Shown here: piece by piece, positions 7,538 through 40,527 of the stretch | Layout of the letters: each line of letters opens with the position of its first letter | Numbering within the stretch: the first letter of the stretch is position 1 | Source of the DNA: Candidatus Aminicenantes bacterium | Lineage (GTDB): Bacteria; Acidobacteriota; Aminicenantia; Aminicenantales; Aminicenantaceae | Direction: 5' to 3' | DNA length: 64,000 nt | NCBI GenBank assembly: GCA_016927475.1 | Contig: JAFGMO010000012.1 | Span: 21,287 to 85,286 of the forward strand | Translations under genes and position numbers: made by a program | Notes under the pieces: model-generated | What the model was told of the DNA's origin: nothing | Database searches by the model: none | Seen by the model: the letters and a program-made list of their open reading frames with translations, nothing else

Positions 7538-7782
7538 TTTTGCTGTTCACGAGCCAAGCTTGCTGTTGGTCAAATTTTTAAATAACACAGTTGAACCTGT
7601 GTTATTCACGAGTCGAGGTTGCCGAAGATGGGAGGCGTCGATGGACGAAGCTGTGCTTGTTCACCGCGAGTCCATCGCAACGAAGCAGATGCGAAAAGAT
7701 CGGCTCGCCTGGAAGGTAAATTTGGTCGGTTTTAAAATAAAAAAAATAATAAGTTCCCGGCCAAATTTATGAATAACACGGG
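7538..7782 (-). mobile_element. MITE-like repeat, copy B (minus orientation) plus an adjacent TIR fragment and TIR-TIR junction hairpin
   Basis: 7596-7782 aligns almost base-for-base in reverse complement with the 3' half of copy A (40400-40527), including terminal CCTGTGTTATTCACGAG. 7538-7562 is a second TIR fragment. 7581-7606 is AAATAACACAG-ttgaa-CCTGTGTTATT. The element abuts the stop of the 7783 gene. Confidence 0.7.
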
Positions 7783-8928
7783 TCAGATGATCTCAAGCAT
7801 ATCCCTCCCCGGCAGTTTCGGAAAAGGGGCGTGGGGTTCCTGCTGGTACCAGATAGCTACGGAAGACAGATCGTCTTGAAGAGGTAAATATCTTCCGCCC
7901 GACCTCCAGCCCAAAGCCTGAATTGTTACTTTTAGTTCTTTTTCGAAACGGACCGGGTCCATAATATGCCACCGGTAAAGCCCGAAGCGTTGTTGGGACT
8001 GCCACATTCCGTCAGGTTTGATAACCTGTGGCATGCCGGCATAGGGAGTGGTAAATTCACTATATTCCCCGCCCGAGGTAAAACAGTATGAGCCGCAGAA
8101 ATAGTCTTCTGTTCCGGTTCCGCAGATGGTCGGAAAATCTGTATCACCGTCGATGAAAAATTTGATCTCACCTTCTCCCCACCAGCCGGTATTATTTGAG
8201 CCCCAGCACATATAGGTGCCGACGTAATGGCCCCAACCTCGAATGCCGTCGACGATTGTATACACCGACTTATAGGGAAGCGGATTTGCCCGGCGGAATT
8301 GGGCATGGAAATATGCGGCATCCTTTGGAATTTCGGTCAGGGTGTAATTGATTTGGTAATAGAGGGTCAAATTTTTGTCATTCAGGTTTTCCATGGTGAT
8401 CCGGCAGGATTTGCGAAAGGGCATGACCCAGTAGCAGTTGAGGCCGCTTCCGGGATTAACGCAGACAGCCAGGGATGAGACCTGAGCGTATTTGCCCCAG
8501 CCGCAGGCGAAAAAGTCTCCGACGGGAACTTCGACCGAAGGCTCCTCTTCACCGTCCCAGTAGAAGCGGAGGATGGAAAAACGCCAGTTTCCGGAGGGAG
8601 TCATCCAGATCTGTTGGATAGCTCCCGGTCCTTCAATCTCGGCCAGAGTGGTCGTCTTTCCGGATTCGATGTGGATATAAGGGGATACCTTCCAGCCTTG
8701 GCCCAAGTCACGGGCGGCTTCTTGGGCGAGTCCGTCGACGGACTTACCGCCTTTTCCTTTTTTACCTGAAAAGTTTTCCGGGCTGATCGAGCGGGATTTG
8801 GCGTGTGAGAGCTTGTAAAGATTTCCCAGGTTGAGATACAAACCGTTGAATGGTTCTTCCTCTTCCGCGAAAATAAAAAGAGACACTAAACATAAAGAAA
8901 GAAAAATCGCCGTTCGCTTTTTTTTCAT
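7783..8928 (-). CDS. secreted DUF2961 / GH172-like protein
   Basis: Signal peptide MKKKRTAIFLSLCLVSLFIFA and the DUF2961 hallmark TGTEDYFCGS with surrounding conserved Trp/Gly blocks. RBS AAGGAG. Confidence 0.75.
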   Translation of the reverse strand: MKKKRTAIFLSLCLVSLFIFAEEEEPFNGLYLNLGNLYKLSHAKSRSISPENFSGKKGKGGKSVDGLAQEAARDLGQGWKVSPYIHIESGKTTTLAEIEGPGAIQQIWMTPSGNWRFSILRFYWDGEEEPSVEVPVGDFFACGWGKYAQVSSLAVCVNPGSGLNCYWVMPFRKSCRITMENLNDKNLTLYYQINYTLTEIPKDAAYFHAQFRRANPLPYKSVYTIVDGIRGWGHYVGTYMCWGSNNTGWWGEGEIKFFIDGDTDFPTICGTGTEDYFCGSYCFTSGGEYSEFTTPYAGMPQVIKPDGMWQSQQRFGLYRWHIMDPVRFEKELKVTIQALGWRSGGRYLPLQDDLSSVAIWYQQEPHAPFPKLPGRDMLEII

Positions 8929-9243
8929 GTTTTTCTCCTTAGAGGGAATACATGCGGGCTTCCCTATATTATGTTGAATTATAGTCCCCCAAAGGGGGTT
9001 GTCAATGTTTAATGTTTCTAAGAAATCTTTAAAAATTTGGGGAATTTCAATGGCATTTTTGTTTTACGATTATTCAATGAATATGCTATGATATTTAAGC
9101 TAGCTGCGTTAGTGTTCTTTTACGGCGAATAAATGCCATAAGAAAAAACCACCTGCCAAAAAGGATTTTTATCCGTTAGGGAGTTTTTTTAGTCTTGAAT
9201 TGTTTCGTTTTTTTGGAATGAATAATAGAATGTCGCTGGTCGA

Positions 9244-12200
9244 ATGAGAAAATCCGGTCCCTTTTTTCTCCATTTTTGCCTTCCTTTTTTCCTATATGCC
9301 ATTTTGCTTTTTACGCCTGCCAAAGCAGAGGCGCAGTTCAAACGGCTTTCCTTGCGCGAAGGTTTATCGCAAAGCCAGGTTTTTTGTGTTGTTCAGGATA
9401 TGGGCGGTTTTTTATGGTTTGGTACCCTGGATGGATTGAACAAGTATGACGGGACGAAATTCACTATTTTCCGGAGGATGATCAATGATCCTCATTCGCT
9501 TTCCGATAACAATATCCTATCACTCTGTGTTGATAAATCAGGAACTTTATGGATCGGAACAGAAGGAGGAGGGCTCAACAGATTAAATCCCGACATGGAG
9601 ACTTTTGCTCATTTTGAACATGATCCCGCTGTTTCTACGAGTTTAGGGAACAACTTCGTTAATGTGATTTTACAGAGCGGAAAGGGCTTTCTCTTGATCG
9701 GTACAGATGGTGGAGGATTATACACATTTGATCAAAAAAGTGAAGAGTTCCGACTCGTGGATTTTTCTCCTTATGATGCACAAATTCATGTGAATGCTGT
9801 TGTCGAAGAAAGTCAGGGAACCTTATGGATGGGAACAACGGCCGGGCTGTTCAAAAAAGATGCAAAAAACGGTAAAGTGGACAAGTTTGTTCATGATCCG
9901 GCCATCGCCGGCAGCCTTTCCCATGACGAAGTCGGAGCGCTTATGCTGGATAAAGAAGGAAATCTATGGGTCGGAACATCGGACGGTCTTGACAGGTTAA
10001 ACAGAGGGAGCGGGGAGTTTGAACATTTTAAACACCAGTCGGACAAACCGAACAGCCTTTCGGATAATAATATCAAATCTCTTTTTCAGGATTCGAAGGG
10101 AAGCATATGGGTTGGAACGGAGAGAGGGGGTCTCAATCGGTGGGACAGCAAGAATAGGATTTTTACGCGGTATGTGAATGATCCTGTGGATCCTGAGAGC
10201 ATCAGTGACAACAGTATTAACGACATTTTTGAGGACCGTTCCGGAGTTTTATGGATTGCAACCAACAATAACGGACTGTCTAAGTTGAGCTTGGTGAGGA
10301 AAAATTTTCATGTTTTTCGAAAACGTCCTTACGATGATAACAGCCTTAGCAATAATGTTGTTTGGGCCGTTCACCAGGATAAAAAAGGAATCTTTTGGGT
10401 GGGAACTGAAAATGGTTTGAACCGGATTGACAGAAAGAGAGGGAAGATTACGAGATTTTATGCGCAGGAGGATTCGTTGCGTTCCATCAGCCATAATTTG
10501 ATCAGGGCTATCTGTGAGGATAGCCAGGGAAATCTGTGGGTGGGGACGGATGGAGGAGGTGTCGACAAGCGGGATTCAAAAACAGGAAAATGGGAGAATT
10601 TTAGCCATGATTCCTCCATTCCCATGGGCCTAAGCAGCAATTACATACGTGTCATTTTTGAGGATCATTCCGGCTTGATCTGGATCGGAACACTAGGAGG
10701 TGGTTTGAACTGCTTGGATCCTCAAAAGAATAAATGTGTTGTCTACAGGAATGAGCCAGGCAATTCCGCAAGCCTTAATAATGATAACGTATATTCCTTG
10801 ATGGAAGACAGCAGGGGAGATCTCTGGGTAGGGACCCTGGGTGGCTTGAATGTGTTTAACAGGGCAAAAAAAACCTTCCATAACTATACGTATAATCCTG
10901 ATGATCCCGCTTCTATAAGTGACAACGGAATCGGAGTTATTTATGAAGATACAAAGGGAAATTTTTGGGTAGGAACGGACAGCGGTCTCAACAAGTTCGA
11001 TAGGACAAGGAATATTTTTATCCGATACACGGTCAAGGACGGTCTGCCCAATGATTTTATCTATGGAATGCTGGAAGACGACAGCGGGCATCTTTGGATC
11101 AGTACCAACCGGGGTTTATCCCGTTTTCATATCGGGACAGAGTTCTTCCGCAACTATGATATCGCCGACGGAATCCAGAGCAATGAATTTAACGCCGGGT
11201 CATTCTTCAAAAATGACAGCGGAGAAATGTTTTTTGGGGGGATCAACGGATTGACTTTTTTCTATCCGGATGAAATAAAAGATAACCTCTATATTCCTCC
11301 AGTTGTATTGACTGAATTCAAGAAATTCGACAGGGCCGTCAGGTTTGACCGTCCGCTGAACCATATCTCATCCATTCGTTTGCACCACAAGGATGATTTC
11401 ATTTCTTTCAGGTTTGCAGCCCTGGATTTCAATGCGCCGGAGAACAACCAGTATTTGTACAAAATGGAAGGTTTTGAAGCAAGCTGGCATGCCTGTGAAG
11501 CGGAACCCCGGGCTACCTATACCAATCTCAATCCGGGGGATTATATCTTCCGGGTAATAGGATCGAATAATGACGGAGTTTGGAATCGTAAGGGACTTTC
11601 AATCCATGTTGAAATTTTGCCGCCTTTTTGGAGCACAGCCTGGTTCAGGATATTAGCGGTTTTATTGTTGGGGGCGATGGTTTTTTTGGTGATCCAGTTC
11701 CGGACGCGACAGGTTTATGCTCAAAGAAAAAAATTGCAGGAACTTGTCCGGTTGAAGACGGAACAGCTCCAGAAAGCCAATAAGGAATTAGAGAAACTGG
11801 CCGGCGAAGATGCTTTAACAAAAATCGCTAATAGAAGAACATTTCAGAAATATATGGACCTGGAATGGAAAAAAGCTCAAAGAGAGAAAGATCCTCTTTC
11901 TTTGATCATGATCGATGTGGACCTTTTCAAATTATTTAATGATACCTATGGGCATCAGGCGGGTGATGATTGTTTGGTCCAGTTAGCCTGTGTTTTGAAA
12001 GAAACCGTAAAACGGCCGGGAGATTTTATCGCCCGTTACGGTGGGGAGGAATTTGCCGTTATTCTTCTCAATACAAATAAAGAAGGGGCTGTTCATGTTG
12101 CCCAAGAGATCAAGGAAAACATGATCAAGCGGCATATTCCCTTTAGAAATTCGCCTGTAAAAAATGTGGTGACGGTCAGCTTGGGGGTTTCCACGCTCGT

Positions 12201-12309
12201 CCCGTCATCTGAGAATAATCCTACGCAGCTTATCCTGTATGCAGACCGTGCCCTTTACGAGGCGAAAAAGTGCGGGAGGAATTGGATTATATCGTACACA
12301 CCGGTATAA
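9244..12309 (+). CDS. sensor diguanylate cyclase: periplasmic two-component-regulator propeller repeats + Y_Y_Y domain + TM + coiled coil + GGDEF
   Basis: Signal peptide, about 14 repeats of the NxIxxIxxDxxGxLWIGTxxGLNxxD type and a Y_Y_Y-like region. One TM helix (WFRILAVLLLGAMVFLVI) and a GGDEF domain with RYGGEEF active-site motif. Confidence 0.85.
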   Translation: MRKSGPFFLHFCLPFFLYAILLFTPAKAEAQFKRLSLREGLSQSQVFCVVQDMGGFLWFGTLDGLNKYDGTKFTIFRRMINDPHSLSDNNILSLCVDKSGTLWIGTEGGGLNRLNPDMETFAHFEHDPAVSTSLGNNFVNVILQSGKGFLLIGTDGGGLYTFDQKSEEFRLVDFSPYDAQIHVNAVVEESQGTLWMGTTAGLFKKDAKNGKVDKFVHDPAIAGSLSHDEVGALMLDKEGNLWVGTSDGLDRLNRGSGEFEHFKHQSDKPNSLSDNNIKSLFQDSKGSIWVGTERGGLNRWDSKNRIFTRYVNDPVDPESISDNSINDIFEDRSGVLWIATNNNGLSKLSLVRKNFHVFRKRPYDDNSLSNNVVWAVHQDKKGIFWVGTENGLNRIDRKRGKITRFYAQEDSLRSISHNLIRAICEDSQGNLWVGTDGGGVDKRDSKTGKWENFSHDSSIPMGLSSNYIRVIFEDHSGLIWIGTLGGGLNCLDPQKNKCVVYRNEPGNSASLNNDNVYSLMEDSRGDLWVGTLGGLNVFNRAKKTFHNYTYNPDDPASISDNGIGVIYEDTKGNFWVGTDSGLNKFDRTRNIFIRYTVKDGLPNDFIYGMLEDDSGHLWISTNRGLSRFHIGTEFFRNYDIADGIQSNEFNAGSFFKNDSGEMFFGGINGLTFFYPDEIKDNLYIPPVVLTEFKKFDRAVRFDRPLNHISSIRLHHKDDFISFRFAALDFNAPENNQYLYKMEGFEASWHACEAEPRATYTNLNPGDYIFRVIGSNNDGVWNRKGLSIHVEILPPFWSTAWFRILAVLLLGAMVFLVIQFRTRQVYAQRKKLQELVRLKTEQLQKANKELEKLAGEDALTKIANRRTFQKYMDLEWKKAQREKDPLSLIMIDVDLFKLFNDTYGHQAGDDCLVQLACVLKETVKRPGDFIARYGGEEFAVILLNTNKEGAVHVAQEIKENMIKRHIPFRNSPVKNVVTVSLGVSTLVPSSENNPTQLILYADRALYEAKKCGRNWIISYTPV

Positions 12310-12329
12310 TCCATCAACGCCATGCATCT

Positions 12330-12385
12330 TCGCTAAACTCTACTCGCCTGAAAGGTAAATATGTCCGGTTTTTTCTTTTTTCTTC
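12330..12385 (-). repeat. fragment of the MITE-like family (internal CTCGCCTGAAAGGTAAAT...CCGG segment)
   Basis: Matches the internal segment of copies B and C (ctcgcctggaaggtaaatttggtcgg). Confidence 0.5.
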
Positions 12386-12521
12386 TCACTCCCGGGCAGA
12401 TTTATGGACAACAAAAGTTTGCTTTAGCTGTTAACATTAAAAATATTCTATTGAATAAACAAAAATACTTTTTCGTATAAAATATAGTGAACATAATATC
12501 GAGCAAAGGAGATGTGCTAGC

Positions 12522-14995: not shown

Positions 14996-15150
14996 ACCTG
15001 AATAAAGCAGCTGCCCTTGCATTATTCATAAATTTGGCCGACAGCAACTCATAATTTCAATATTGAGTAGCATTTAATGCTGGTTTTCGGCAAAAATGAT
15101 ACTGGAACATTTTCCATGACCATTTTAAGAAGCTGCTGACATTGCTTTTA
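14996..15150 (+). mobile_element. MITE-like repeat, copy D (5' half, degenerate 3' end) preceded by an inverted TIR
   Basis: CCTTGCATTATTCATAAATTTGGCCGACAGC...GGAACATTTTCCATGACCATTTT matches the 5' half of copy A. It is preceded by CCTGAATAAAGCAG, a TIR in opposite orientation, forming a hairpin junction. Confidence 0.6.
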
Positions 15151-16782: not shown

Positions 16783-16824
16783 CGCTTCATTTGTTTTATT
16801 CCTTTAATTTTTAGGAAAATCTTG

Positions 16825-16853
16825 TTGACAAACGCATCAATATTCCTTAAAAT
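16825..16853 (+). promoter_or_regulatory. sigma70-like promoter TTGACA-N17-TAAAAT for the PadR-permease operon, overlapped by AGGAA/TTCCT repeats
   Basis: TTGACA at 16825-30, 17-nt spacer, TAAAAT at 16848-53. ATATTCCTTAA-type motifs flank it. Confidence 0.4.
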
Positions 16854-16878
16854 TAAAGGAAAACTATAAGGATTAAAA

Positions 16879-17199
16879 ATGAAGCTTTTAACACGAGCGG
16901 AAGAAATGATCCTTCTGTCCATTCTTAGGCTCAAAGACAACGCCTACTGTGTGCCCATTTTTGACGAGATCCAGCGGATCACACAAAAAAAATGGACCAT
17001 GGGAGGGATTTACATTCCGCTTTACAGGCTTGAAAAGAATGGGTATGTGGGATCCCATCTTGGTCAACCCACTGCAGAGCGGGGGGGGAAAAGTAAAAGA
17101 TTTTACTGGCTGACCCCTAAGGGTTTGAAATCCCTCGAGGCGATCAAAAAGATCGAAAAAGCTATGTGGGAAGGACTTACCCAAGTCGGCACTGATTGA
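16879..17199 (+). CDS. PadR family transcriptional regulator
   Basis: Winged-helix PadR signature (LSILRLKDNAYCVPI...GGIYIPLYRLEKNGYV...). Confidence 0.9.
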   Translation: MKLLTRAEEMILLSILRLKDNAYCVPIFDEIQRITQKKWTMGGIYIPLYRLEKNGYVGSHLGQPTAERGGKSKRFYWLTPKGLKSLEAIKKIEKAMWEGLTQVGTD

Positions 17200-19841: not shown

Positions 19842-19844
19842 ACG

Positions 19845-19900
19845 AAGAAATTACGCTGATACATCGAGAGTAACTCGCCTGGAAGGATAACGATAAAAAA
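19845..19900 (+). repeat. fragment of the MITE-like family (CTCGCCTGGAAGG core)
   Basis: Shares the internal core with copies B, C and E. Confidence 0.4.
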
Positions 19901-19973
19901 TAGAAGTTGAGGTTGGTTGCGGACAGCGGTAACCATTGTTTTTCAAGAGGGAAAAACGTAAAATCCTTGTCAA

Positions 19974-20675: not shown

Positions 20676-20747
20676 AAACAATTTTTTTTTATTTTTTTTG
20701 TAACGATTTGTCCTAGAAAACCGTAATAATATATAGAGGAATTTTTG

Positions 20748-28891: not shown

Positions 28892-29144
28892 GCCTATCTC
28901 CTTTTGATCGGATATAATTTCCTGAATTAACCAGATATTTATCCCTGAAAGAATAACAGTATCAGATTCAGATCACCCTCGTCAATCTAGAGTCATAATA
29001 TACCTTTTTTTAGAGAATTTTTTGAATGACGATGCTGTGGTTGTATAATTTGAAATGTTTCTTATATAATTTAGGAAAGCATATGAAAATAGATGGTTCG
29101 TTGTAATTTAATAAATAGCCATTAAAGATAATAGAGGAAGTAGG

Positions 29145-31394
29145 ATGAAAAAGTATAAAATCGCCTTTATCGGAAATTATATTCCACGTCAATGCGGTAT
29201 CGCAACATTTACCAGAGACCTCACTGAGTCTTTAATCAAAATCAATAGAGAAAAGAATATAAAAGCAGAGGCCTTTGTGGTAGCGATGAATGATCAGAAT
29301 CAGACATATGCCTATCCGGAAATAGTCAAGTTTACTGTCAGACAGGAATATCAGAGAGACTATTTAGAAGCTGCAAAATTTATTAATTATAGTAATGCTG
29401 AAATCTGCATTTTACAGCACGAATTTGGCATTTTTGGGGGTGAAAACGGGATATATATTCTTCCTTTGATTCACGAATTGCAAATTCCTCTTATTGTTAC
29501 ATTTCATACGGTATTAAAAAATCCATCTGAAAAAGAGATGATGATTGTTAGAGAAATCGGGAAAAAAGCAGAGAAAATTGTTGTTATGAGCAAATTGGCT
29601 GTAGATTTTTTAATCAATATTTATAATTTACAGAAGCAGAAAATAAAGCTTATCGAACATGGAGTTCCAGATTTTGATTTTATTCAAAGGAAAACTTATA
29701 AAAAGAAACTCAATCTTGAAAACAAGAAATCACTGCTGACATTTGGACTATTGAGTCGAGACAAGGGGCTTGAAACTGTTATCCAGGCTCTGCCTCGCGT
29801 AGTGAAGAAACATCCTGAAATCGTTTATGTCATACTGGGGAAAACTCACCCAAATGTAGTAAGGTCGTCCGGGGAAGAATACAGAAATTATCTTAAACTT
29901 CTTGTAGAAAGGAATAATTTAAGAAAGCATGTCTATTTTTATGATAAATACGTATCCAACGAGGAGTTGTTTGGCTATCTTTCAGCCATTGATATATATA
30001 TCACACCATATCTCAATGAGGCGCAAATAACGAGCGGTACATTATCCTATGCCATAGGAGCGGGAGCTGCTGTTGTTTCAACCCCATACTGGCATGCCAA
30101 GGAATTATTGTCGGATGGAAGGGGAATGTTGTTTGATTTTAAGGATTCTGATGCACTTGCCGATTTACTGATAAATTTGTTTAATAACCCAGAAAAGCTG
30201 AGCAGAATAAGGAAAAAAGCTTATCAATATGGAAGGAAAACTGTCTGGCCTGAGATTGGGGCTCGCTATCTTCAGCTTGTTGCCGACGTCTTGAAAAAAG
30301 GTCCTGAAGTAAGAATTAAAGAGGAACCTGTAGTTAATCCTTTGATTCTTCCAGAATTTTGTTTAGATCATGTGCAAAGATTAACTGATGATACGGGAAT
30401 TCTCCAACATGCAAAATATATAATCCCTAACTTTAAAGAAGGCTATAGTCTGGATGACAATGCTCGCGCTCTTTTAATGTTTCTTATGGTCTTCAGGCAA
30501 AGAAAAAATAAAGAAGCACTGAAGTTTATTACTACCTGCTTGAGTTTCATCAATTTAATGCAGAATGATGATGGGACCTTTAAAAATTATTTGAGCTTTA
30601 ATAGGAATTTCATTGATCAAGTCGGTTCAGAAGATTCATTTGGTAGAACTGTGTGGGCACTTGGATATCTGGTTAAGTATCCACCAAATGACCTCTTTTT
30701 TGAAATTGCTGAAGAGATTTTAATAAAATCTTTCTCTAACTTGATGCATTTAAAATCTATTCGTGGTATGACAAACTCAATCATAGGGCTCTGCCATTTT
30801 CTCAAAATTTTCCCCGATAATAAGCAGATAAAAATAATCCTTAAAGAGATGACTTACAAAATAGTGAAAAGCTATAAAAATTATAAGACAGATGATTGGC
30901 GTTGGTTCGAACCAATTTTGACTTATGATAATGGCATTCTTCCCCTCTCGCTTTTGCATGCTTCTGAAGAGATTGAAGATGAGAACATTTTAAAGATTGC
31001 CTACGAATCAATAGAATTTTTGGAAAAAGCAACTTTGGTGAAAGGACATCTGTCTTTGGTGGGAAGTGATAACTGGTTTAAAAAAGGAGGAGATCGTTCG
31101 CAGTTTGCTCAGCAGCCATTAGATACTACGGCCATGGTTTTGATGTTTTATCAGGCTTATCTAGTCAGTAGAAATAAAACTTTTTTAAAAAAAATGCTCA
31201 AATCTTATATGTGGTTTCTGGGAGAAAATGATATAAATAAGCCTTTGTATGATTTCAAAACTTGCGGCTGTTCTGATGGAATAGAAAGCTACGGCACAAA
31301 CAGAAATCAAGGAGCAGAAAGCATTATCATGTATATGATTGCCCACATGGCCGTTCTTTTGGCTTATGAACAAGAAGTGGATCAGATCAAATGA
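29145..31394 (+). CDS. GT4-family glycosyltransferase fused to a C-terminal (alpha/alpha)6-barrel-like domain
   Basis: N-terminal ~390 aa are GT-B/GT4 (KIAFIGNYIPRQCGIATFT...). The C-terminal ~350 aa have alpha-toroid-like blocks (YSLDDNARALLMFL, NDDGTF, FGRTVWALGYL). Low GC (~35%). Confidence 0.65.
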   Translation: MKKYKIAFIGNYIPRQCGIATFTRDLTESLIKINREKNIKAEAFVVAMNDQNQTYAYPEIVKFTVRQEYQRDYLEAAKFINYSNAEICILQHEFGIFGGENGIYILPLIHELQIPLIVTFHTVLKNPSEKEMMIVREIGKKAEKIVVMSKLAVDFLINIYNLQKQKIKLIEHGVPDFDFIQRKTYKKKLNLENKKSLLTFGLLSRDKGLETVIQALPRVVKKHPEIVYVILGKTHPNVVRSSGEEYRNYLKLLVERNNLRKHVYFYDKYVSNEELFGYLSAIDIYITPYLNEAQITSGTLSYAIGAGAAVVSTPYWHAKELLSDGRGMLFDFKDSDALADLLINLFNNPEKLSRIRKKAYQYGRKTVWPEIGARYLQLVADVLKKGPEVRIKEEPVVNPLILPEFCLDHVQRLTDDTGILQHAKYIIPNFKEGYSLDDNARALLMFLMVFRQRKNKEALKFITTCLSFINLMQNDDGTFKNYLSFNRNFIDQVGSEDSFGRTVWALGYLVKYPPNDLFFEIAEEILIKSFSNLMHLKSIRGMTNSIIGLCHFLKIFPDNKQIKIILKEMTYKIVKSYKNYKTDDWRWFEPILTYDNGILPLSLLHASEEIEDENILKIAYESIEFLEKATLVKGHLSLVGSDNWFKKGGDRSQFAQQPLDTTAMVLMFYQAYLVSRNKTFLKKMLKSYMWFLGENDINKPLYDFKTCGCSDGIESYGTNRNQGAESIIMYMIAHMAVLLAYEQEVDQIK

Positions 31395-31401
31395 AAATCC
31401 A

Positions 31402-32868
31402 TCAATGATTCGTCAATTTCTCAAAGAGCTCATCAAGGGGAATGCCGGCAAATCCTGAGGAATAATCAGACATACCATAGGCAATGACTAATTCATTGTT
31501 ATGAATGATGGAACCGCAGGAATACACCACATTGGGAACATAACCTTCACGTTCCTCTTCGTTGGGAACAAGAAGTGGTTCTGCCAGGCGGCCGATAACT
31601 TTTGTAGGGTCATCTTTGTCAAGAAGTAGAGCACCTAGACTGTAGCTTCTCATCGGACCGACTCCATGGGTAATGAGAAGCCATCCTTTTTCGGTTTCAA
31701 GAGGGGATCCTGAATTACCGATTTTAATGAGTTCCCATGTTTGAAGGGGTTCCTGGATTTTCTTTGCACTTCTCCAGTAATTTATATTTTCTGAATACAT
31801 GATATAGTTGTTAATGCCATCCGATCGTGCAGTCATAACGTATTTTCCATTTATCTTTCGCGGGAAGAGAGACATCCCTTTATTCTGAGCATATTCTCCA
31901 TTCATCGGCATCACTTCAAAATGATAGAAATCATATGTTTTCATCAGTTTTGGCAGAATGGTATAACCATCATAGGCCGTATAGGTCGCGTAATAAGTGA
32001 CCTTTCCATTATCATCAGTAAATTTTACAAATCTGGCGTCCTCAATACCGTTCACTTCTGTGTATGAGACAGGAAAAAGAACTCTTTCTGAAATTGCAGT
32101 ATCCAGTGAAAATTTAACCTCATAATGAGACTTGGCCAGCCACATAATCGATTCTATGACCTTTGTTTTACTGGGAGTGACTCTAACCTGTTTTAAAGTT
32201 TCCTCTATACTTTGTTTCAATTCGCCGTAAAGAAATGTTTTTCCTAGTTTATCCATCACTATATTCACGACATCTTTTTCAATATGCATTTCAGAAAGCT
32301 TTTTCAGAAACGTTATTTTCTTGTATACATGACGCTTGATGATTTCTGGTACATCTACTAATCTTCCCTCAGTCTGAAATTTCAGGCTGTTATCTTTATC
32401 AACGATTCCCTGGCGGAAAACAATAGAAGAAATATGATGCTCGCCTGTAGCGCGGAAACTGACGATGATTCTTTTCTGGCCTTCTTCCAAATTGCTTTGA
32501 TCAGGTGCTTCAACAATAGATGGATTAAAAAACGCAGTTGATTCAATGGAGTATTCTGTTGTGAAATAAGATCCAATCAGTAATTTTTTTTTCAAACTAA
32601 GTGGCTTATTATCATTATTTATATTACCCAATATTTCTTGTAGAGAATTAAAACTATTCTCAAATATTTTTGAAATGTTTCGATGTCTTTTGGAAAAATT
32701 GCTCAATATTTGGTTGAGTATATGACTTACTTCCTCTTCAGAACGTTTTAAAATGCTTGTAATAATGACTCTTGCTCTATCCTCTTTTATTGGCATATAG
32801 AATTTCGCAATAACTCTTTTTGGGTTAGGGTAAAAACGAGTTTCTTTTCTATTCACGGTTATAGCCAT
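31402..32868 (-). CDS. GH130-family glycoside hydrolase/phosphorylase-like protein (beta-mannoside phosphorylase family)
   Basis: GIEDARFVKF (GH130 EDPR-like block), GALLLDKDDPTKV and VVYSCGSIIHNNELVIAYGMSDYSSGFA C-terminal blocks typical of GH130, plus an N-terminal ~190-aa extension. Low GC. Confidence 0.65.
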   Translation of the reverse strand: MAITVNRKETRFYPNPKRVIAKFYMPIKEDRARVIITSILKRSEEEVSHILNQILSNFSKRHRNISKIFENSFNSLQEILGNINNDNKPLSLKKKLLIGSYFTTEYSIESTAFFNPSIVEAPDQSNLEEGQKRIIVSFRATGEHHISSIVFRQGIVDKDNSLKFQTEGRLVDVPEIIKRHVYKKITFLKKLSEMHIEKDVVNIVMDKLGKTFLYGELKQSIEETLKQVRVTPSKTKVIESIMWLAKSHYEVKFSLDTAISERVLFPVSYTEVNGIEDARFVKFTDDNGKVTYYATYTAYDGYTILPKLMKTYDFYHFEVMPMNGEYAQNKGMSLFPRKINGKYVMTARSDGINNYIMYSENINYWRSAKKIQEPLQTWELIKIGNSGSPLETEKGWLLITHGVGPMRSYSLGALLLDKDDPTKVIGRLAEPLLVPNEEEREGYVPNVVYSCGSIIHNNELVIAYGMSDYSSGFAGIPLDELFEKLTNH

Positions 32869-33097
32869 TTTGTGCTTTCCTTCTTCTTCTTCAAAGCCTC
32901 AATCTAGTGAAAAGACTCTTAAATTAAAATTGTTTTTAATTAAGAGATTATTAAAGAAAAAACAAAGTTTTGTCAATACTCAAAGAAAGGCATGATTTGG
33001 GGTGGGGGATCACGGCCATCAAGATAGATTTTGCTGGGATGTATTTATTGTTTTTTTCCCGGCGAAGGCTTTTCAAGCGAGGTGCGCAGGACTGTAA

Positions 33098-34267
33098 TCA
33101 CCTGTTCTTTTTATCGAAGTATAAGATTTGACCTTTCTCTACACACTTGGCCGCATACAAATACATGGCGGCTGACCATGTCTGCCAGTCTTGCCCTTGG
33201 GGGGTGCCGTCTTTGGCGCGTATCCATTCATTGAAACCGAAGGAAAGCTTGTTTCCTCGAGCAGGCCTGACCAGCTCTGTAAGCGCCACTAATTTTTTTT
33301 CAGCCAGCTTGGGCATCCCTGCAGCGAGAACCGCGGCCACATAAAAACCGCAAATAAATGGCCAAACACCCCCGTTGTGATATTCACCGGGTTTATTGTA
33401 TGTTTCATAGCGGGGTCTCCAATCGGGATCCTCCGGTCTAATATAAGGAAATAAGTTCGGTGGCAAATCTACAGCTAGCTCTCTATGTTCCCTTAGATTT
33501 TTACATTCGGATTCGATCCAGGATATCAGCTGTTTCGATCGAGTATGACTAGCAATGCCGGTAAGAATGGCTAGGGAATTTCCCAGAAGGTCGAATCGTT
33601 CATTCCTGTAGATTTTGTAAGACCAGAGGGAATAATATGGCTTATGGGGAACAACCAATCCCTCGTGAACATGCCTTGACTGTTTCTCTCCCAGAATTAT
33701 GAAGTGCCGGATCATGTCACGGAGCTGTTCGGCCTGATCATTGCGCCCGAAAAGACAAAGATATGCGAAGACAATGGTATTAACATATAGCCCATAACCG
33801 AGAACCCATTGCTCGTCACGCCAGTCTGAGGTAGGAAGTTGAGCCACCATGACGCGGTCACTGGGGCTCTGGTACTCCATCCAAGTGAGCGCTTTATTTG
33901 CGGCCTCCTCTAAAAAATCCTTGTTGCCGGTTACCCTTCGGAAGATGGCAAGGGACATGAGAAATAGGGGAGTCGTATCACTGGCCCCCCGGTCTTCTGG
34001 ATCGTGCACCAATGAAGGGATGTGTCCATGAAAGGTTTGGTTCTGAGCTAGTGTTTCCAGTACTTTCTTTAGGCAATTTATAAGCTGTTCGTTCTCCGAA
34101 GCGAGTATCCCCAAAGCTGATACCATCAAATCCCTTGTATAAGGTTCAGGATACCCCCAGCCTGCTGTTCTGGGCAGTCCCTGATAGGGGCCTCGGGAAT
34201 TATGGATGAGAATCTCCAGAGCTGCCTTCTTGGCTTCCTCAACAGGATTGTAAAAAGGCTTTTTCAT
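33098..34267 (-). CDS. GH100/GDE_C-like (alpha/alpha)6-barrel glycoside hydrolase (neutral-invertase/amylo-alpha-1,6-glucosidase superfamily)
   Basis: PYTRDLMVSALGIL (compare VFIRDFVPSALAFL of alkaline/neutral invertases), GASDTTPLF and YHNGGVWPF motifs. Start is 1 nt after the upstream GT4 stop. Confidence 0.6.
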   Translation of the reverse strand: MKKPFYNPVEEAKKAALEILIHNSRGPYQGLPRTAGWGYPEPYTRDLMVSALGILASENEQLINCLKKVLETLAQNQTFHGHIPSLVHDPEDRGASDTTPLFLMSLAIFRRVTGNKDFLEEAANKALTWMEYQSPSDRVMVAQLPTSDWRDEQWVLGYGLYVNTIVFAYLCLFGRNDQAEQLRDMIRHFIILGEKQSRHVHEGLVVPHKPYYSLWSYKIYRNERFDLLGNSLAILTGIASHTRSKQLISWIESECKNLREHRELAVDLPPNLFPYIRPEDPDWRPRYETYNKPGEYHNGGVWPFICGFYVAAVLAAGMPKLAEKKLVALTELVRPARGNKLSFGFNEWIRAKDGTPQGQDWQTWSAAMYLYAAKCVEKGQILYFDKKNR

Positions 34268-34268
34268 T

Positions 34269-35414
34269 TCAGGAAATACTCAACCTTCGGGACATGATCT
34301 CGATAAATTTGCGGGCAACTCTGCGGTAATCAAAGAGTTCTACGACGCGTTTCCTTCCCGCCATACCCATTGTTTTACGGAGATCGGAATCAGTCATCAA
34401 TTTAAACAAATAATCAGCGATGTCATAGATGCTGGCACGGTAGTCGGCAGTGTGCGGCCTTGGAAAGACGATGCGGTGCCCATTCTCAAAACCGGACTCT
34501 TCTCCCAGAATCGCTTCTCTTAGCCGAACTTCCTGGGCTACGCGGGCAAGGAAAGCCGTTTCTTTATGAACCAAAGTATCCAGCATGGCCATCGCTTTGA
34601 TACCGATGACCGGTTTTCCACAAGCCCCGGCCTCAACCTGAGGCATACCGAATCCTTCCAATCGAGAGGGAGCCGCATATATATCGCAGGCACCGATCAG
34701 ATAAGGCATGAAATTCCTGGAAATTACATTGGTCGTATACACCACGTTCTTTTCTATACCCAGATCAGTGGCCAATTTCATATCTGCCAGGTTCTGAGCG
34801 ACCGTCCGAGGTTGAGGCCATACTTTACAGACGTACTTCCAATCAGGAATCTTGGTGTCAATCAAGGCGAGCGCTTGCATCACCTCCTGGGAACCTTTAG
34901 ATGCTGCATCACCACCGACAGTCAAGATCATGATCTGATCTTGAGACACTCCCAAGGCCTCGCGTACGGTTACGATCTTTTTGTCGTTCATGTCGGGGGG
35001 ATTGAAGGCATCAGTGTCACACCCAACAGGAAGGACTTCTATAATATCCTGTTTGACGCCGTCCCTGATGTAAGTGTCTTTAACCCAATTAGATGTGACT
35101 AAAATCAAGGGAAGATTGTTCAAGACTTCGATATAATTTGCAATATAACCGTCGGCTACCATCCAAGGGACAGGCAGTACGCCATATCTTTGCGGATGGA
35201 GAATCAAGTGGGGGGTGTGTCCCCAATAACCGACGCCTACCACAACATCTGGTTCGAACCAGCGGTAATACCACTCTTTTTCTTGGGCGGATTCGAAATG
35301 GACAGCATGCGCATCAATACCTATCTCCTTAAGGCCTCTGAAGAGGAGATCGCCCTGAGTAGCGAGGCCTCCAGGAGAAGGGGGATAATCATAGAGGACC
35401 AATATTTTCATCAT
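34269..35414 (-). CDS. GT4-family glycosyltransferase
   Basis: GT-B fold with C-terminal EGFGMPQVEAGACGKPVI motif. ATG 35414 (MMKILVLYDY) is preceded by AAGGAG. The longer track start lacks an RBS. Confidence 0.8.
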   Translation of the reverse strand: MMKILVLYDYPPSPGGLATQGDLLFRGLKEIGIDAHAVHFESAQEKEWYYRWFEPDVVVGVGYWGHTPHLILHPQRYGVLPVPWMVADGYIANYIEVLNNLPLILVTSNWVKDTYIRDGVKQDIIEVLPVGCDTDAFNPPDMNDKKIVTVREALGVSQDQIMILTVGGDAASKGSQEVMQALALIDTKIPDWKYVCKVWPQPRTVAQNLADMKLATDLGIEKNVVYTTNVISRNFMPYLIGACDIYAAPSRLEGFGMPQVEAGACGKPVIGIKAMAMLDTLVHKETAFLARVAQEVRLREAILGEESGFENGHRIVFPRPHTADYRASIYDIADYLFKLMTDSDLRKTMGMAGRKRVVELFDYRRVARKFIEIMSRRLSIS

Positions 35415-36063
35415 CTTTCTCCTTTTTGAGACACCATCCATTATAACTTTTTGGTGAATTGAAACACCAAAAGGCTTCCACATTGGGTGAGGTTCGAGCT
35501 TCCCAGCTTGCCTGAGAAAATCCGTATATCTTGGTTATAATAGAATTCTTTCTCTTCCAAACAGGCAGAGGCAGGGACAGGGTATGATGGGCGTTTTTAT
35601 CAGCGTGGGTGTAATAGGCTCCTTGGCCATCCTCATAGGCAAAAATCCACATTTCCTTTGTTTGGATCTTTTTACTGGTCCAGAGTGCTAATAATGCTTT
35701 GCCGGTTTCTTCATGTCTCCGGTGTCGGGTGTATTCGCCCCAAGGACTGTGGGTAATTAAAAGATCAAACCTGCTTCCTTCGATTAAGTTAATGATTGTT
35801 TTGTGAATCTCGGCCTCTTCCAGTGGCTTTTGATCAGGACCGTCCTCCAGATCCGCCATTTTTCCTTTTGCATGCAGAAATCTTAGTGCTTTGAAAAACT
35901 TGTTGGATCTGTCGCGATCGCTCTGGCGGCACAAAGTATAGATTGAACATTGCCATTCGGGATGCATAATTATTGTTCCTCCTGCCCAAAGTGTCTCATC
36001 ATCAGGGTGGGCAACAATGATCCCGACATTTCGGCATTTGTTATGTGTTTTTTCTTGCCCCAT
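35389..36063 (-). CDS. PIG-L/LmbE-family N-acetylglucosaminyl deacetylase
   Basis: AHPDDE zinc-binding motif (IIVAHPDDETLWAGG) and conserved His/Asp downstream. The 3' end overlaps the GT4 start by about 26 nt. Confidence 0.8.
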   Translation of the reverse strand: MGQEKTHNKCRNVGIIVAHPDDETLWAGGTIIMHPEWQCSIYTLCRQSDRDRSNKFFKALRFLHAKGKMADLEDGPDQKPLEEAEIHKTIINLIEGSRFDLLITHSPWGEYTRHRRHEETGKALLALWTSKKIQTKEMWIFAYEDGQGAYYTHADKNAHHTLSLPLPVWKRKNSIITKIYGFSQASWEARTSPNVEAFWCFNSPKSYNGWCLKKEKDDENIGPL

Positions 36064-36212
36064 GGTTCCTAGGAATAAAAAATTTTTTTTTATTTTTATA
36101 ATTATAATGTAAAGCTCGATGTAATAATACTGGAAAGCGGCCTTAGTCAGCGGATGAATTTTTTTTTAGATGCAAAGTATTCATATTTGAAATCGGTTTA
36201 TAAATATATAAA

Positions 36213-38633
36213 TCATTCTGATATTGTAACAGACTCCAAAAGTGCGGATGTCATCCAGGGAGAATAATCAAATAGATTATGATAGGAAAAACGTAATGTG
36301 AGAATATTCTCTCTTTTTTTTACAAAATCACCCATACAGATGAAATCAATCACATTGGTTCCGTATTTTAATGATTTTTGATATACATGAGTTCCATTAC
36401 AAGCGATTTTTACTTTCTGGATGTAATCTCCATGCCACCTAGGATCGGTAAAGCGGAATTGAGAATAGAGACGAAGCTGAACATGCATTCTTTTGGAGAC
36501 GGATTTGTTGATTCTTATATAAACTTCTCGCATACAGATTCTATGAGTTTTATTCTCCACTTTAACTATGGGACCAAAACCTGATAAAAATTCGATTTTA
36601 GGTCTTTGATTAGAGAGTCTTTCCCTGGGCATCTGATAGGATATTTCTTTTTCTGTATGGGGCATTTCAATGCCCTGATAGTCCAGATAGTATTTTATTG
36701 TGAATAGCTGAGTATTAGGCAGAGGCAGCTGAAAATGAATCAACTCCTTTTGAGAAGAGAATCCTCTCTCTAATGAAATATTTTTTTGGATTTTTATGTG
36801 GATCAGAAAACCTGGATTATTCGATAGTTTTCGATTCCGGAAAGTAATGTACAATTTTCTGTTGGAAGTTTCTATTTGATGGATAACAAGGTCTGGAATA
36901 GTATCTGGAATCCTATGTAGAAGTTCTAATGGAAAAATATGGCCTCGAAGATCAAACACCAAAAGCCCGAAGTTACCAATATCTATTTTTTTTCTATGAA
37001 CATGAAGCCGGTCAAGAAGCTGCAGAAAAAACTCAGAGCGGTCGAAATATTGGATTAAATTTTCTTTTATATTATTTACGCTTTCCTTGTATTTCAATGC
37101 GTACGATCCAGGCTCTTTAAAAAATAAAAAGTTGTTGTTTTCCCCACGGTTCAAGTACTCCAGTCGGTAAGGAATATATTTTACATAAGGTTGAGACCAA
37201 CAGATCAGCTTCTCACCCGAGAGGGCGGTAATAAGAAAGGACTGCCAGAATCCTCCTGTCCAGTACTTCTTGCCGGTTTTTTCCATAATTGTTATGAGTT
37301 GTTTTAAGTTGGCGTCTGCCTCTTTAACCAGGAGGTGGCTTTTAAAAAGCCCGGAAATGTTGCTGGTGAAAAAAATAAGGAGAAATAAACCTGCGATAAG
37401 AAAGTTTTTAATTTTTTTTCTTATCTGGATCATACCATATACTAAGAAGACAGGGAGGGAAACGTAAAGGGGATACAGATACCGGATCAAGAGATCGTTT
37501 GATTCGAATTTTGACAGCATGTAAATGCAAATAATGACAATAGCTAGAATGAGAAATATATTTTCAGGCAGGAATTTTTTTCTTTTTACTGAGTTAAATA
37601 TTAGAGTTGCCACACCAAGAATCAAAAGCCCGGCAAGTATATATACGAATTTGTTTTTTTCCCAAGTTAGTAGGGAAAAAATATTATTCAGGATGGAGGC
37701 CATTTTTTCTGTTGGATTATTGAGAAGGAGAGATTCTGGAAGCAGATACTGAATAGAAACCCCTTTAGAGCTTAATATGTGTAAAATCATGGGGAAACAT
37801 CCCACAAGTCCATAAATGCCCAGCTTGAAGTATTCTTTAATAGAAAACCGGAGCCGCATGACCAGAAATATCATACAGCATGACGCAAAATAGATAGTTA
37901 AAGGATGGGTCCAGAATGACAAACCCAGACATAGTCCGATTATAGGGATGTATTCTTTTCTATTTTTTTTATATAAAAGATAGGAAAGGAAAAGTGATAG
38001 AGTTCCCAAAAAAAGAACTACAGGTGAATAGGTGAGATGAAAGCTTAAAGCAAGGAGATATCCGATAGGCAGACTATAGAACAGACATAATGCTAAAGAT
38101 ATGGATTCTGATGAAAATATTTCCCGGTAAAAAAAATATTGAGTGATCACGAAGGCCGAAAAAAAGAAGAAGATAACGACCAAAGGACCCAAAATGGAAT
38201 AGCCGAATATTTTAAATACGATTGCATAAAGATGGCTGGGAAAGGTTCCTTCATCCAAGCTGTCATATAAATAGATGGGAGGCCATTTTCCTTCCGAGAT
38301 ATGCTTTCCGACTAATAGAGGAACGGAGTCATCGGAGTCTATAAGGCCAAAGCTATATGAATAAAATGGAATTCGAATGATGAGGGCCAGCAGGATGAGT
38401 CCGGTCAGAAACCAAAAACTCCTGGACTTCCAGAATGGAAAGTGTGGTCTGTATTTCTTGGATATTATTATACGAGCAAGGGTGATACCTATGAGTGGAA
38501 TCAATGCCGGAAATGGGGAGGCTTTGAGTTGATGCAATATTGTGAAGTTATTTTTGAACCATAAAATGAGAAAAATCAAATAAAGAATAAGTTGTAGATA
38601 TTTTAGAATAGATTTAGAGGTCTGTTTTGCCAT
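36213..38633 (-). CDS. GT-C-fold membrane glycosyltransferase (ArnT/PMT-like) with large C-terminal extracytoplasmic domain
   Basis: About 12 N-terminal TM helices with an acidic first-loop motif (GLIDSDDSVPLL), in the position of the GT-C catalytic DE/DxD. A ~380-aa soluble C-terminal domain follows. Very low GC (~33%). Confidence 0.5.
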   Translation of the reverse strand: MAKQTSKSILKYLQLILYLIFLILWFKNNFTILHQLKASPFPALIPLIGITLARIIISKKYRPHFPFWKSRSFWFLTGLILLALIIRIPFYSYSFGLIDSDDSVPLLVGKHISEGKWPPIYLYDSLDEGTFPSHLYAIVFKIFGYSILGPLVVIFFFFSAFVITQYFFYREIFSSESISLALCLFYSLPIGYLLALSFHLTYSPVVLFLGTLSLFLSYLLYKKNRKEYIPIIGLCLGLSFWTHPLTIYFASCCMIFLVMRLRFSIKEYFKLGIYGLVGCFPMILHILSSKGVSIQYLLPESLLLNNPTEKMASILNNIFSLLTWEKNKFVYILAGLLILGVATLIFNSVKRKKFLPENIFLILAIVIICIYMLSKFESNDLLIRYLYPLYVSLPVFLVYGMIQIRKKIKNFLIAGLFLLIFFTSNISGLFKSHLLVKEADANLKQLITIMEKTGKKYWTGGFWQSFLITALSGEKLICWSQPYVKYIPYRLEYLNRGENNNFLFFKEPGSYALKYKESVNNIKENLIQYFDRSEFFLQLLDRLHVHRKKIDIGNFGLLVFDLRGHIFPLELLHRIPDTIPDLVIHQIETSNRKLYITFRNRKLSNNPGFLIHIKIQKNISLERGFSSQKELIHFQLPLPNTQLFTIKYYLDYQGIEMPHTEKEISYQMPRERLSNQRPKIEFLSGFGPIVKVENKTHRICMREVYIRINKSVSKRMHVQLRLYSQFRFTDPRWHGDYIQKVKIACNGTHVYQKSLKYGTNVIDFICMGDFVKKRENILTLRFSYHNLFDYSPWMTSALLESVTISE

Positions 38634-38905
38634 TATAAAAACAATGAAGATGAGAAATATTTATCAAGCTAAAATAAAACAGCCTCTTTCCCTTTTCACC
38701 GATCAGTTCTTGCAGAGAAAGGATAGGAACTTCTTTTTTGTCGATGATGATTCATTTTTCCTAAATCCCCACCCAATAAAATCCTGAACTGAGACTAGCA
38801 CACCCAAACAGACAAAGTCAATGTCATTCGGAATGTCATTCGGAATGTTTCAGTAGTCGACAATGACAAATAGTTATTTTTATGTATTATGAATGGTGAG
38901 GTTTT

Positions 38906-40273
38906 ATGGAAAATCAAATTTCTATAAAAAGAGAAGGTTTTGGTACAAAATTCGGAGCTATCGCTGCGGCTGCAGGAGCAGCTGTCGGAATCGGCAACAT
39001 CTGGAATTTCCCTTATCTTACAGGTAAAAATGGTGGTGGAGCTTTCATTGTCATCTACATTTTTTGTGTTCTTTTAATCGGTATTCCGATTATGATTTCC
39101 GAATTTATTTTAGGAAAAAGAGGACAAAAGAACATGGTAGGCTCTTTTAAGACTCTTGCTCCAAACTCAAAATGGCACTGGGTAGGATGGTTCTGTGTTG
39201 TTGCGTGTTTCCTCATACTCGGATTCTACGGTGTTGTTGCAGGATGGAGTTTTGCTCATGTTGCAGAGGCTATTGGCGGCATTTTTAACGGCCTTAATGC
39301 TGAACAGATAGGGGATAAATTTACTAGACACATAACACATCCTATATGGCCTATCTTCTGGCATTTTATTTTTATGGGTGCAACTGCAGGTATCGTTATA
39401 TGCGGCATCAGAAAAGGGATCGAAAAATTCTCAAAGATTTTTATGCCGGTTCTGTTTGTTCTTCTTATGATTCTTGCTATAAGATCGATCACTCTTCAAG
39501 GGGCTTCCGATGGTCTTAAATTTATTTTTAAACCCGATTTTTCTCAGGTTAGTGCTAAAACCATACTTATTGCCTTAGGAGCTGCATTCTTCTCAATTGG
39601 TGTGGGTAACGGTGTTATGGTGACCTTCGGTTCATACCTGAGAAGAGATACAGAACTTGGAAACACAGCGTTTCAGGTTTCCATGACTGATACTATCATT
39701 GCAATTATTGCAGGTGTCGCAATTTTCCCCGCAGTTTTCGCTCTTGGATTTGAACCAACTCAGAGCTCTGGTCTTGCTTTTATTACTGTTCCAGCTGTAT
39801 TTCAGAGTATTCCAGGCGGAGCAGTAGCGCACTACTTTTTTACACTTGTCTTCTTTATCCTGCTTTCAATTGCGGCACTCACATCTTCCGTTGCAACCCT
39901 CGAGGTAGTGGTAGCTTATTTTACAGAAGAGTTTAAGGTAAAGAGAATAGGTGCTGCTTTAGTGATTTCCGGAATAATGTTTCTTATTGGTATCCCCTGT
40001 GCCCTCTCAATAGGTGCTGTACAAATTAACCTTTTTGGAGTTGGATTCTTCGATTTTATCATTTTCCTTGTTGAAGCTATCTTCCTGCCGGTTGGCGGAC
40101 TTATGATAGTTATCTTTGTAGGCTGGCGTCTCAAAAAGAAAGATATTGAAGAAACATTAAGTGCCAATGGAGTAAAAGCTTGGTATCAGGATAGTTGCCT
40201 TTTATTAATAAGATTTATTGTCCCAGTAGTTATTGTTGCAGTTCTTGTTAAAACTTTTATTGATGCTTTCTAA
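38906..40273 (+). CDS. neurotransmitter:sodium symporter (NSS/SNF, SLC6-like) family transporter
   Basis: N-terminal NSS signature (GFGTKFGAIAAAAGAAVGIGNIWNFPYLTGKNGGGAF) and 11-12 TM segments. Confidence 0.85.
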   Translation: MENQISIKREGFGTKFGAIAAAAGAAVGIGNIWNFPYLTGKNGGGAFIVIYIFCVLLIGIPIMISEFILGKRGQKNMVGSFKTLAPNSKWHWVGWFCVVACFLILGFYGVVAGWSFAHVAEAIGGIFNGLNAEQIGDKFTRHITHPIWPIFWHFIFMGATAGIVICGIRKGIEKFSKIFMPVLFVLLMILAIRSITLQGASDGLKFIFKPDFSQVSAKTILIALGAAFFSIGVGNGVMVTFGSYLRRDTELGNTAFQVSMTDTIIAIIAGVAIFPAVFALGFEPTQSSGLAFITVPAVFQSIPGGAVAHYFFTLVFFILLSIAALTSSVATLEVVVAYFTEEFKVKRIGAALVISGIMFLIGIPCALSIGAVQINLFGVGFFDFIIFLVEAIFLPVGGLMIVIFVGWRLKKKDIEETLSANGVKAWYQDSCLLLIRFIVPVVIVAVLVKTFIDAF

Positions 40274-40274
40274 C

Positions 40275-40527
40275 CTGCATTATTCATAAATTTGGCCGAC
40301 ACCGACAGATAATTCCAATATTATGTGTCATTTAATGATGATCTTAGGTAAAATTGATAATGAAACATTTTCCATGACCATTTTCAAGAAAATGTCGGCC
40401 ATATTTACCCTACGGGCGAGCCGCTCTTACCACATCTGCTTCGTTTCGATGGACTCGCGGTGCCAAGCACAACTTCATCCATCGACGCCTTGCATCTGCG
40501 GCAAGCTTGGCTCGTGAATAATACAGG
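40275..40527 (+). mobile_element. MITE-like repeat, copy A (complete, 253 bp)
   Basis: Starts CCTGCATTATTCATAAATTTGGCCGACA 1 nt after the NSS stop and ends CTCGTGAATAATACAGG. TIR consensus CCTG(C/T)ATTATTCA. Confidence 0.75.

Follow-up and report, generated by a model that had tools for sequence, protein, structure and literature searches.

A family of MITE-like repeats with 13-bp terminal inverted repeats and YTAR target duplications in Candidatus Aminicenantes

We analyzed 64,000 nucleotides (nt) of a genome assigned to Candidatus Aminicenantes bacterium (GenBank assembly GCA_016927475.1, contig JAFGMO010000012.1, positions 21,287 to 85,286 of the forward strand). This whole stretch is called the window, and coordinates without a further label refer to it. 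Within 33 kb of the window lie five significant copies and two mini copies of one repeat family, which consists of non-coding elements, 190-255 bp long, and of derivatives shortened to about 45 nt by deletion; the copy count for the source genome covers the window only. With a probability of roughly 0.88, we interpret these repeats as true copies of a prokaryotic MITE (miniature inverted-repeat transposable element), which inserts at YTAR and duplicates 4 bp. The copies, most of them bounded by terminal inverted repeats (TIRs), are listed below.

7489-7531, minus strand: mini copy 2, degenerate, about 43 nt, reading CTTCACTATTCATAAAAAATGCCGA...TAAATAGTTCAGG; a weak assignment, made by eye and alignment only
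7543-7590, minus strand: mini copy 1, 48 nt, both ends present; recognized by alignment with the joined ends of copy A and with the L004 mini copy (see below)
7596-7782, minus strand: copy C, 187 bp, a TIR at either end (CCCGTGTTATTCA and TGAATAACACAGG), its first module short and A/T-rich; profile E 9e-51
about 12299-12418, minus strand: copy F, a decayed copy of the short-module form; nhmmer E 7e-7
14998-15011, plus strand: solo fragment resembling a 3' TIR, CTGAATAAAGCAGC, 4 nt upstream of copy D
15016-15131, plus strand: copy D, 5' half only; profile E 1.5e-17
23748-23954, minus strand: copy B, 207 bp, with both TIRs; found by BLASTN and by profile search
40274-40527, plus strand: copy A, complete, 254 bp, long-module form, with TIRs CCTGCATTATTCA and TGAATAATACAGG; nhmmer E 5e-76

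Sensitive BLASTN with copy A as the query against the whole window recovered copy B at 23791-23962 (83% over 174 nt, E 2e-42), copy C at 7591-7728 (83% over 138 nt, E 5e-33), copy D at 15018-15131 (84% over 115 nt, E 2e-27) and copy F at 12310-12377 (68% over 68 nt, E 1e-4). An initial annotation of this DNA had seen copies align over more than 120 bp, and the sequence at its coordinates reads as it describes. An independent repeat finder returned the same copy pairs, and a profile built from five copies detected the window copies with E values from 5e-76 to 7e-7 (nhmmer). Moreover, the 25-nt 5' end occurs four times in the window at up to 3 mismatches, compared with none in 100 shuffles, and a 17-nt 3'-end pattern matches five times where 0.42 matches are expected; of these five, three mark the genuine 3' termini of A, B and C, and the other two are the opposite-strand 5' TIRs of A and B.

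At least three other Aminicenantes-like assemblies also carry related copies, at unrelated loci, so that the further copies on which the initial annotation had made its proposal depend do exist. The copies found outside the window are named here by locus.

L002 and L003, in the metagenome-assembled genome (MAG) CBFDBS01: copies cut by contig ends
L004, in the same MAG, CBFDBS01: mini copy of 44 nt
L014, Ga0255055_10068120, 274-530: copy with 13-bp TIRs and both flanks
L028, 16176-16366: copy with a short first module, decayed

A 19-nt motif from the 5' end was used to scan collections of genomes, metagenomes and viruses; most matches were chance seeds, the true relatives obtained in this way were only L002-L004 and L014, and beyond these the family is rare in those collections. 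Scans of the viral collections with the core motif and with the 3' motif returned nothing real, and phage and plasmid collections gave no BLASTN match. In the literature, a text search for the terminal sequences produced nothing relevant, and no report of a MITE in Aminicenantes was found. Within the source sample, short-read Logan contigs (SRR13394437) break within A and C, which is how contigs of a repeat in multiple copies should behave. Protein look-ups placed exact window proteins on contigs of the same sample only, or nowhere, and the DUF5916 protein (40728-43370) shares 100% identity with a protein of a Candidatus Aminicenantes bacterium MAG, a label that its closest homologs also bear.

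Alignment of the copies gives the order of modules as 5' TIR, a stem with the first module, core, second hairpin and 3' TIR. The terminal inverted repeats of the initial annotation are 13 bp long (CCTGnnTTATTCA / TGAATAAnnCAGG) and are present in A, B, C and L014. A 12-bp stem, AAATTTGGCCG...CGGCCAAATTT, encloses the first module, which takes a long form of about 90 nt in copies A, B and D and in L002 and L014, and a short, A/T-rich form in C, F and L028. The conserved core reads TTTACCYTYCRGGCGAGCCGATCTYAC..CATCTGC, and the second hairpin reads (C/T)GATGGA...TCCATC(G/A). Between genomes the ends and the core are 81-89% identical, compared with 43-55% for the interior of the first module, and such conserved ends around a variable interior fit a requirement of the ends for transposition. 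The GC content of the elements (0.42-0.47, against 0.46 for the genome) does not make them markedly AT-rich. No conserved reading frame was found in the alignment, in which 1-nt insertions or deletions between copies break all frames, and inspection of the alignment revealed no third-codon-position bias among the substitutions; the elements are therefore non-coding. For the same reasons (differing frames and no third-position bias on inspection), we rejected the idea that the 3' half is the relic of a transposase C-terminus. A Bacteroidetes-type -7 promoter box, which TAAATTTG just inside the 5' TIR brings to mind, was also dropped, as the host belongs to Aminicenantes and no suitably spaced upstream box was seen.

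The individual copies differ from their first description in several respects. Copies A and B, initially described as complete, are both real, with the start of A moved from 40275 to 40274. In copy B, the second internal hairpin (about 65 nt) is missing and a segment of 16 nt is present in addition. The repeat at 7596-7782 had been called near-complete; it is a genuine copy, and with both termini and a short internal module, copy C is a subfamily variant and not a truncated element. The family sequence noticed at 7538-7562 turned out to belong to mini copy 1, in which an internal deletion has fused about 28 nt from the 5' end to about 20 nt from the 3' end. Five nt separate mini copy 1 from copy C, and here the 3' TIR of C and the 5' TIR of mini copy 1 form a hairpin with a 10-bp stem. 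This hairpin (7581-7606) is perfect, as had been claimed for two places with abutting TIRs, but the one at 15001-15030 is not: there, the solo fragment at 14998-15011 pairs imperfectly with the 5' TIR of copy D. Copy C and both mini copies together occupy most of a spacer of about 300 nt between convergent MatE and GH172 genes, and the clustering that the initial annotation had linked with hot spots of nested insertion is visible at 7489-7782 and at 14998-15131. The half copy placed at 15015-15150 was recovered as a 5' half at 15016-15131 (BLASTN E 2e-27); it reaches from the TIR through the stem and the first module, which is of the long form, and its similarity to the family ends after about 116 nt. 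The fragment at 12330-12385 is part of copy F (nhmmer E 7e-7), whose core, TTTACCTTTCAGGCGAG, is intact and whose TIRs are degenerate. The fragment at 19845-19900 had to be given up, as it matches the core motif only (15 of 17 positions, with 1.15 such matches expected by chance) and reaches an nhmmer E value of 5.

We then turn to the sequences that border the elements. Direct 4-bp repeats stand outside the TIRs of the three copies whose termini are well preserved and whose two flanks are both available: CTAA/CTAA for copy A (40270-40273 and 40528-40531), TTAA/TTAA for copy B (23955-23958 and 23744-23747) and TTAG/TTAG for L014. The target duplications that the initial annotation had expected around complete copies are thus perfect in all three, and in A and L014 they can be seen to be direct repeats, as opposed to a continuation of the TIRs. 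The left flanks of the copies cut by contig ends are CTAA (L002) and CTAG (L003), and all of these flanks fit YTAR. Based on 4-mer frequencies of the window, the chance of identical flanking 4-mers is 0.0047 per element, and that of 4-mers both identical and of YTAR form is 1.85e-5.

A comparison with the related Aminicenantes contig L028 (ENA ERZ23498365, scaffold_113) adds evidence of a different kind for copy B. This contig has an ortholog (83% nt identity) of the MacB-type permease gene that adjoins copy B, and its BLASTN alignment with the window ends exactly at the border of the element. L028 reads ...TTTTTTCGCCTTCTAT-TCAA-AGGTCCCTTTCATCTTGAATC..., with a single 4-mer at the junction, and the window reads ...TTTTTTCGCCTTCTAT-TTAA-[B]-TTAA-AAGCCCTTTTTATCTTAAATC.... 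Without copy B and one TTAA, the window runs collinear with L028 through the junction. The alignment of the right flank starts at the same offset; its local score is 16, and 5000 shuffles gave at most 15. As judged from this alignment, the window carries the filled site of copy B and L028 the orthologous empty site.

The site of copy A has a counterpart in L022, a contig from another sample whose SNF gene is 95.6% identical at the nt level. At the exact site of copy A, L022 (1878-1931) has CTAA followed by a TIR-like sequence, CCCGGATTATTCATG; after it come 36 nt unlike either the element or the downstream flank in the window, and then the contig ends. This 36-nt tail found no match among the window and the fetched loci. 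The L022 site could be a different family member, possibly an autonomous one, a second insertion at the same YTAR, or a rearrangement.

With respect to genes, every window copy lies at a gene 3' end. Copy A follows the SNF transporter gene (38906-40273) with no intervening nt, and the TAA stop codon of this gene sits inside the left CTAA of the duplication. Copy B has convergent MacB/FtsX permease genes on its two sides, and their stop codons are 20 nt and 58 nt away. The 5' end of copy C adjoins the TGA stop codon of the GH172/DUF2961 gene (0 nt), copy D begins 31 nt after the stop of an S15 peptidase gene, and copy F overlaps a stop, its 3' part covering the last codons of the GGDEF gene (9244-12309). 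In four window copies the 5' end faces the stop codon of a co-directional gene; in copy F and in the copy of L028, the orientation toward the neighboring stop codon is reversed. The initial annotation had placed all copies just downstream of stop codons, which holds in the window but not beyond it: in L002 (246-260), the 5' end of the element stands 9 nt before the ATG of a polyprenyl-synthase-like gene, and in L014 (222-273) it stands 51 nt before a gene start, with the genes beside the element transcribed divergently. Lying at gene 3' ends is thus a regularity of the window and not of the family. The CAGG that ends the TIR in L002 stands at the distance expected of a ribosome-binding site, and judging by these positions the element may supply expression signals in L002 and L014. 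The siting at 3' ends in the window could follow from the target itself, as YTAR holds TAA or TAG and would be common in A/T-rich spacers, and insertions between convergent genes would be the least harmful and would persist.

Position and folding also bear on what the repeats are. They could be a structured non-coding RNA, or an element of 3' untranslated regions (UTRs), such as a small RNA, a terminator or an mRNA stabilizer, that is kept for a host function and was spread by duplication, with the inverted ends as its closing stem. The folds predicted for RNA or single-stranded DNA are indeed stable, with -80.6 kcal/mol and z -5.7 for A, z -3.6 for C and z -2.3 for B, the consensus fold has a few compensatory stem changes (4 of 43 pairs), the internal core is conserved and, as described above, the 5' end of four window copies faces a co-directional stop codon. 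A long self-complementary fold is, however, what TIRs and internal palindromes bring about, and the target duplications together with the orthologous empty site speak for insertion and not for local duplication. Moreover, Rfam gave no match in the window at the gathering score, and at the permissive threshold of E <= 1 its only match was a chance snoRNA; copy A and its immediate surroundings held no stem of terminator type with a T-run behind it, and the terminators or mRNA-stabilizing hairpins of the initial annotation are speculative. Orientation is inconsistent, with F and the L028 copy reversed and the L002 and L014 copies upstream of gene starts, and whole modules are dispensable, since B does without the second hairpin and C without the long module. 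A simple duplication of a gene 3' UTR, the explanation that the initial annotation had set against mobility, is excluded, because the genes flanking the copies are unrelated to each other. Taken together, we consider an RNA element of host function improbable, and some copies may have a secondary, exapted RNA role.

Two other kinds of mobile element were weighed against a MITE with a 4-bp target. Every duplication has TA at its center (CTAA, TTAA, TTAG), as would also be seen with a MITE of the IS630/Tc1-mariner type that duplicates TA only, the outer bases of the repeat being the element's own; IS630 targets NTAN sites. Nevertheless, the bases beside TA match between the two flanks in six of six cases in A, B and L014, though they vary among copies, and the empty site in L028 has one 4-mer (TCAA) where the window has two TTAA, which makes duplication of TA alone very improbable. 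The abundance of hairpins, the intergenic and clustered positions and the abutting inverted units would suit REP/BIME-like elements or palindromic elements derived from IS200/IS605 (PATEs), which are moved in single-stranded form by a Y1 HUH transposase (RAYT/TnpA). REP and PATE families are not known to have TIRs of the DDE type or a target duplication, and they insert by a fixed tetra- or pentanucleotide on one side; the elements described here have 13-bp TIRs and direct 4-bp duplications on both sides, and the window holds no gene for a Y1 transposase or TnpB. We therefore give this origin hardly any credence.

Insertion as a MITE at YTAR remains the interpretation that we favor, and its mechanism can be sketched as follows. 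A DDE-type transposase encoded elsewhere would recognize the ends and the conserved subterminal sequence, a staggered 4-bp cut would be made at a YTAR tetranucleotide and the element inserted there, and repair of the staggered cut would duplicate YTAR. The initial annotation had described non-autonomous TIR elements mobilized in trans, in agreement with the duplications, the empty site and the copies elsewhere; the step in trans and the DDE type of the enzyme are what we infer. Several observations weigh against this interpretation or leave a part of it unaccounted for. A domain search of the large open reading frames (ORFs) of the window revealed no transposase domain, and no pair of TIRs at a spacing typical of an insertion sequence (IS) was found in the window or in L001-L029; hence the transposase with matching TIRs, for which the initial annotation had suggested a search, did not turn up there, and mobilization in trans can only be deduced. 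The copies within the genome are only about 83-86% identical, which gives no sign of a recent burst. In addition, C, F, D and the L028 copy have no recognizable duplications. Copy C has CTGA on its left and TTCA on its right, the duplication not being preserved, and in the older copies C, F and L028 the duplications are lost. For copy C the original target can nonetheless be approached through the GH172 ortholog in L027, which ends ...ATCATCTAA, in CTAA, where the window has ...ATCATCTGA|CCCGTG...; from this comparison the target of copy C was likely a CTAA containing the stop codon.

The ends of the element also do not fit the end signatures of IS5 and IS701, which counts on the same side. 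IS1380 elements have 4-5-bp duplications and ends beginning with CC (ISfinder family table), and by this description alone the element resembles them in its 4-bp duplication and its CC ends; we know of no YTAR preference for IS1380. Ends of the IS5 group begin with GG or GA, in contrast to the CCTG of the element. A 4-bp YTAR target duplication is the hallmark of IS5 (PMC10359306), and the duplications and flanks CTAA, TTAA, TTAG and CTAG fit it. No IS5-family transposase was found nearby, so that membership of the element in IS5 is no more than a possibility. The target duplication of IS701 is strongly conserved and exactly 4 bp long (PMC2266710), the same length as in the element, and the family has a published end signature of ---YACT-Y--YR, of which CCTGCATTATTCA, compared by hand, fits three of the seven conserved positions; the authors of that signature state that the consensus is not representative of the whole family (PMC2266710). 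We can also imagine, as an unlikely and rather speculative extension, that an undescribed Aminicenantes transposase group, with IS5-like targeting of YTAR and CC-type ends, mobilizes the family and that some copies have also been exapted. At stop codons, the conserved core and the closing hairpins of such copies could shape mRNA 3' ends, and the outward-facing TIR (TGAATAAT...CAGG) could provide promoter or ribosome-binding signals 9-50 nt before gene starts, as its location in L002 and L014 would allow.

The surroundings of the copies have further features. The related contig L029 (84-92% nt identity) is collinear with the window except for two segments that it does not have. One, at 16784-27287 (10.5 kb), contains three PadR-MacB/FtsX pairs, a PrsW protease gene and copy B; the other, at about 29010-40700 (11.7 kb), has a GC content of 0.35-0.41 and holds a glycosyltransferase/GH130/PMT cluster, the SNF transporter gene and copy A. 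A composite transposon, in which pairs of elements would bound these two window-only islands, was considered and rejected, as no copies lie at the island borders. Four MacB_PCD/FtsX permease paralogs of 791-884 amino acids (aa) are encoded at 17196-19841, 21035-23689, 23975-26611 and 60001-62376, the first two preceded by 106-aa ORFs (16879-17199 and 20745-21065) at the place where the L028 and L029 orthologs have a PadR gene. The repeat-finder families D1, D4, D14 and D15 reflect coding similarity among these paralogs and are not mobile repeats. Similarly, the five 41-nt copies of family D2 (9550-10721) lie inside the GGDEF sensor gene and correspond to its nine Reg_prop beta-propeller repeats, a coding repetition unrelated to the MITE family.

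Further downstream, a 156-nt inverted repeat with 91% complementarity (arms 45839-45994 and 46644-46799) encloses 649 bp with a truncated tyrosine-recombinase gene. Only the C-terminal catalytic part of the recombinase is left (46160-46513, Pfam Phage_integrase, E 1.6e-22), with a motif that we take to be integron-integrase-like. The arms lie directly upstream of the divergent genes 44991-45848 (minus strand) and 46809-47411 (plus strand, DUF4145), and the structure at 45839-46799 may have arisen by inverted duplication of a promoter, or it may be a segment that can invert. Next to it, 46809-54005 is a probable defense island with a GC content of 0.51-0.54, in which the DUF4145 protein, with a weak match to PD-T7-4, precedes a 2158-aa STAND NTPase that matches PADLOC Avs3a (E 1e-202 over the first 812 residues).

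Overall, the repeats have the size of MITEs (about 50-800 bp), TIRs of sufficient length (at least about 10 bp), a target duplication and a filled site with its empty counterpart, together with multiple dispersed copies and no coding capacity. The element shows every testable feature of a MITE except an identified autonomous partner (PMC10969869, PMC11602168). The family is apparently undescribed, is of a well-known kind and brings no conceptual novelty; the understanding of bacterial MITEs is unchanged by it. What it adds is the documentation of an apparently new mobile-element family in Aminicenantes (OP8), an uncultured and little-studied candidate lineage that is, to our knowledge, known only from metagenomes. 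The family is useful for annotation and assembly, as it explains why short-read contigs of the sample break at copies A and C. The 13-bp TIR and the YTAR target offer a handle for finding the responsible transposase, and the filled and empty sites can be used as strain markers.

Prokaryotic MITEs are shorter than 500 bp, with TIRs of 10-30 bp, target duplications on younger copies, no transposase gene and transcripts that fold strongly; they occupy intergenic or 3'-UTR sites and come with size variants by internal deletion and with decayed partial copies (PMC10969869). QMITE2 of Coxiella lies mostly in the 3' UTRs of ORFs (PMC10969869). The family described here differs in sequence from the known MITEs, no similarity having been found in the searches of literature text, Rfam, phages and plasmids, and resembles Correia/NEMIS of Neisseria, ERIC, RUP, Chunjie, Nezha, MITEAba12 and QMITE2 in size, TIRs, duplications, folding and siting. 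It is likewise unrelated in sequence to the pneumococcal BOX, RUP and SPRITE elements, of which BOX is without clear TIRs or target duplications. With these elements it shares optional internal modules, clustering and adjacent insertion in spacers (PMC10969869).

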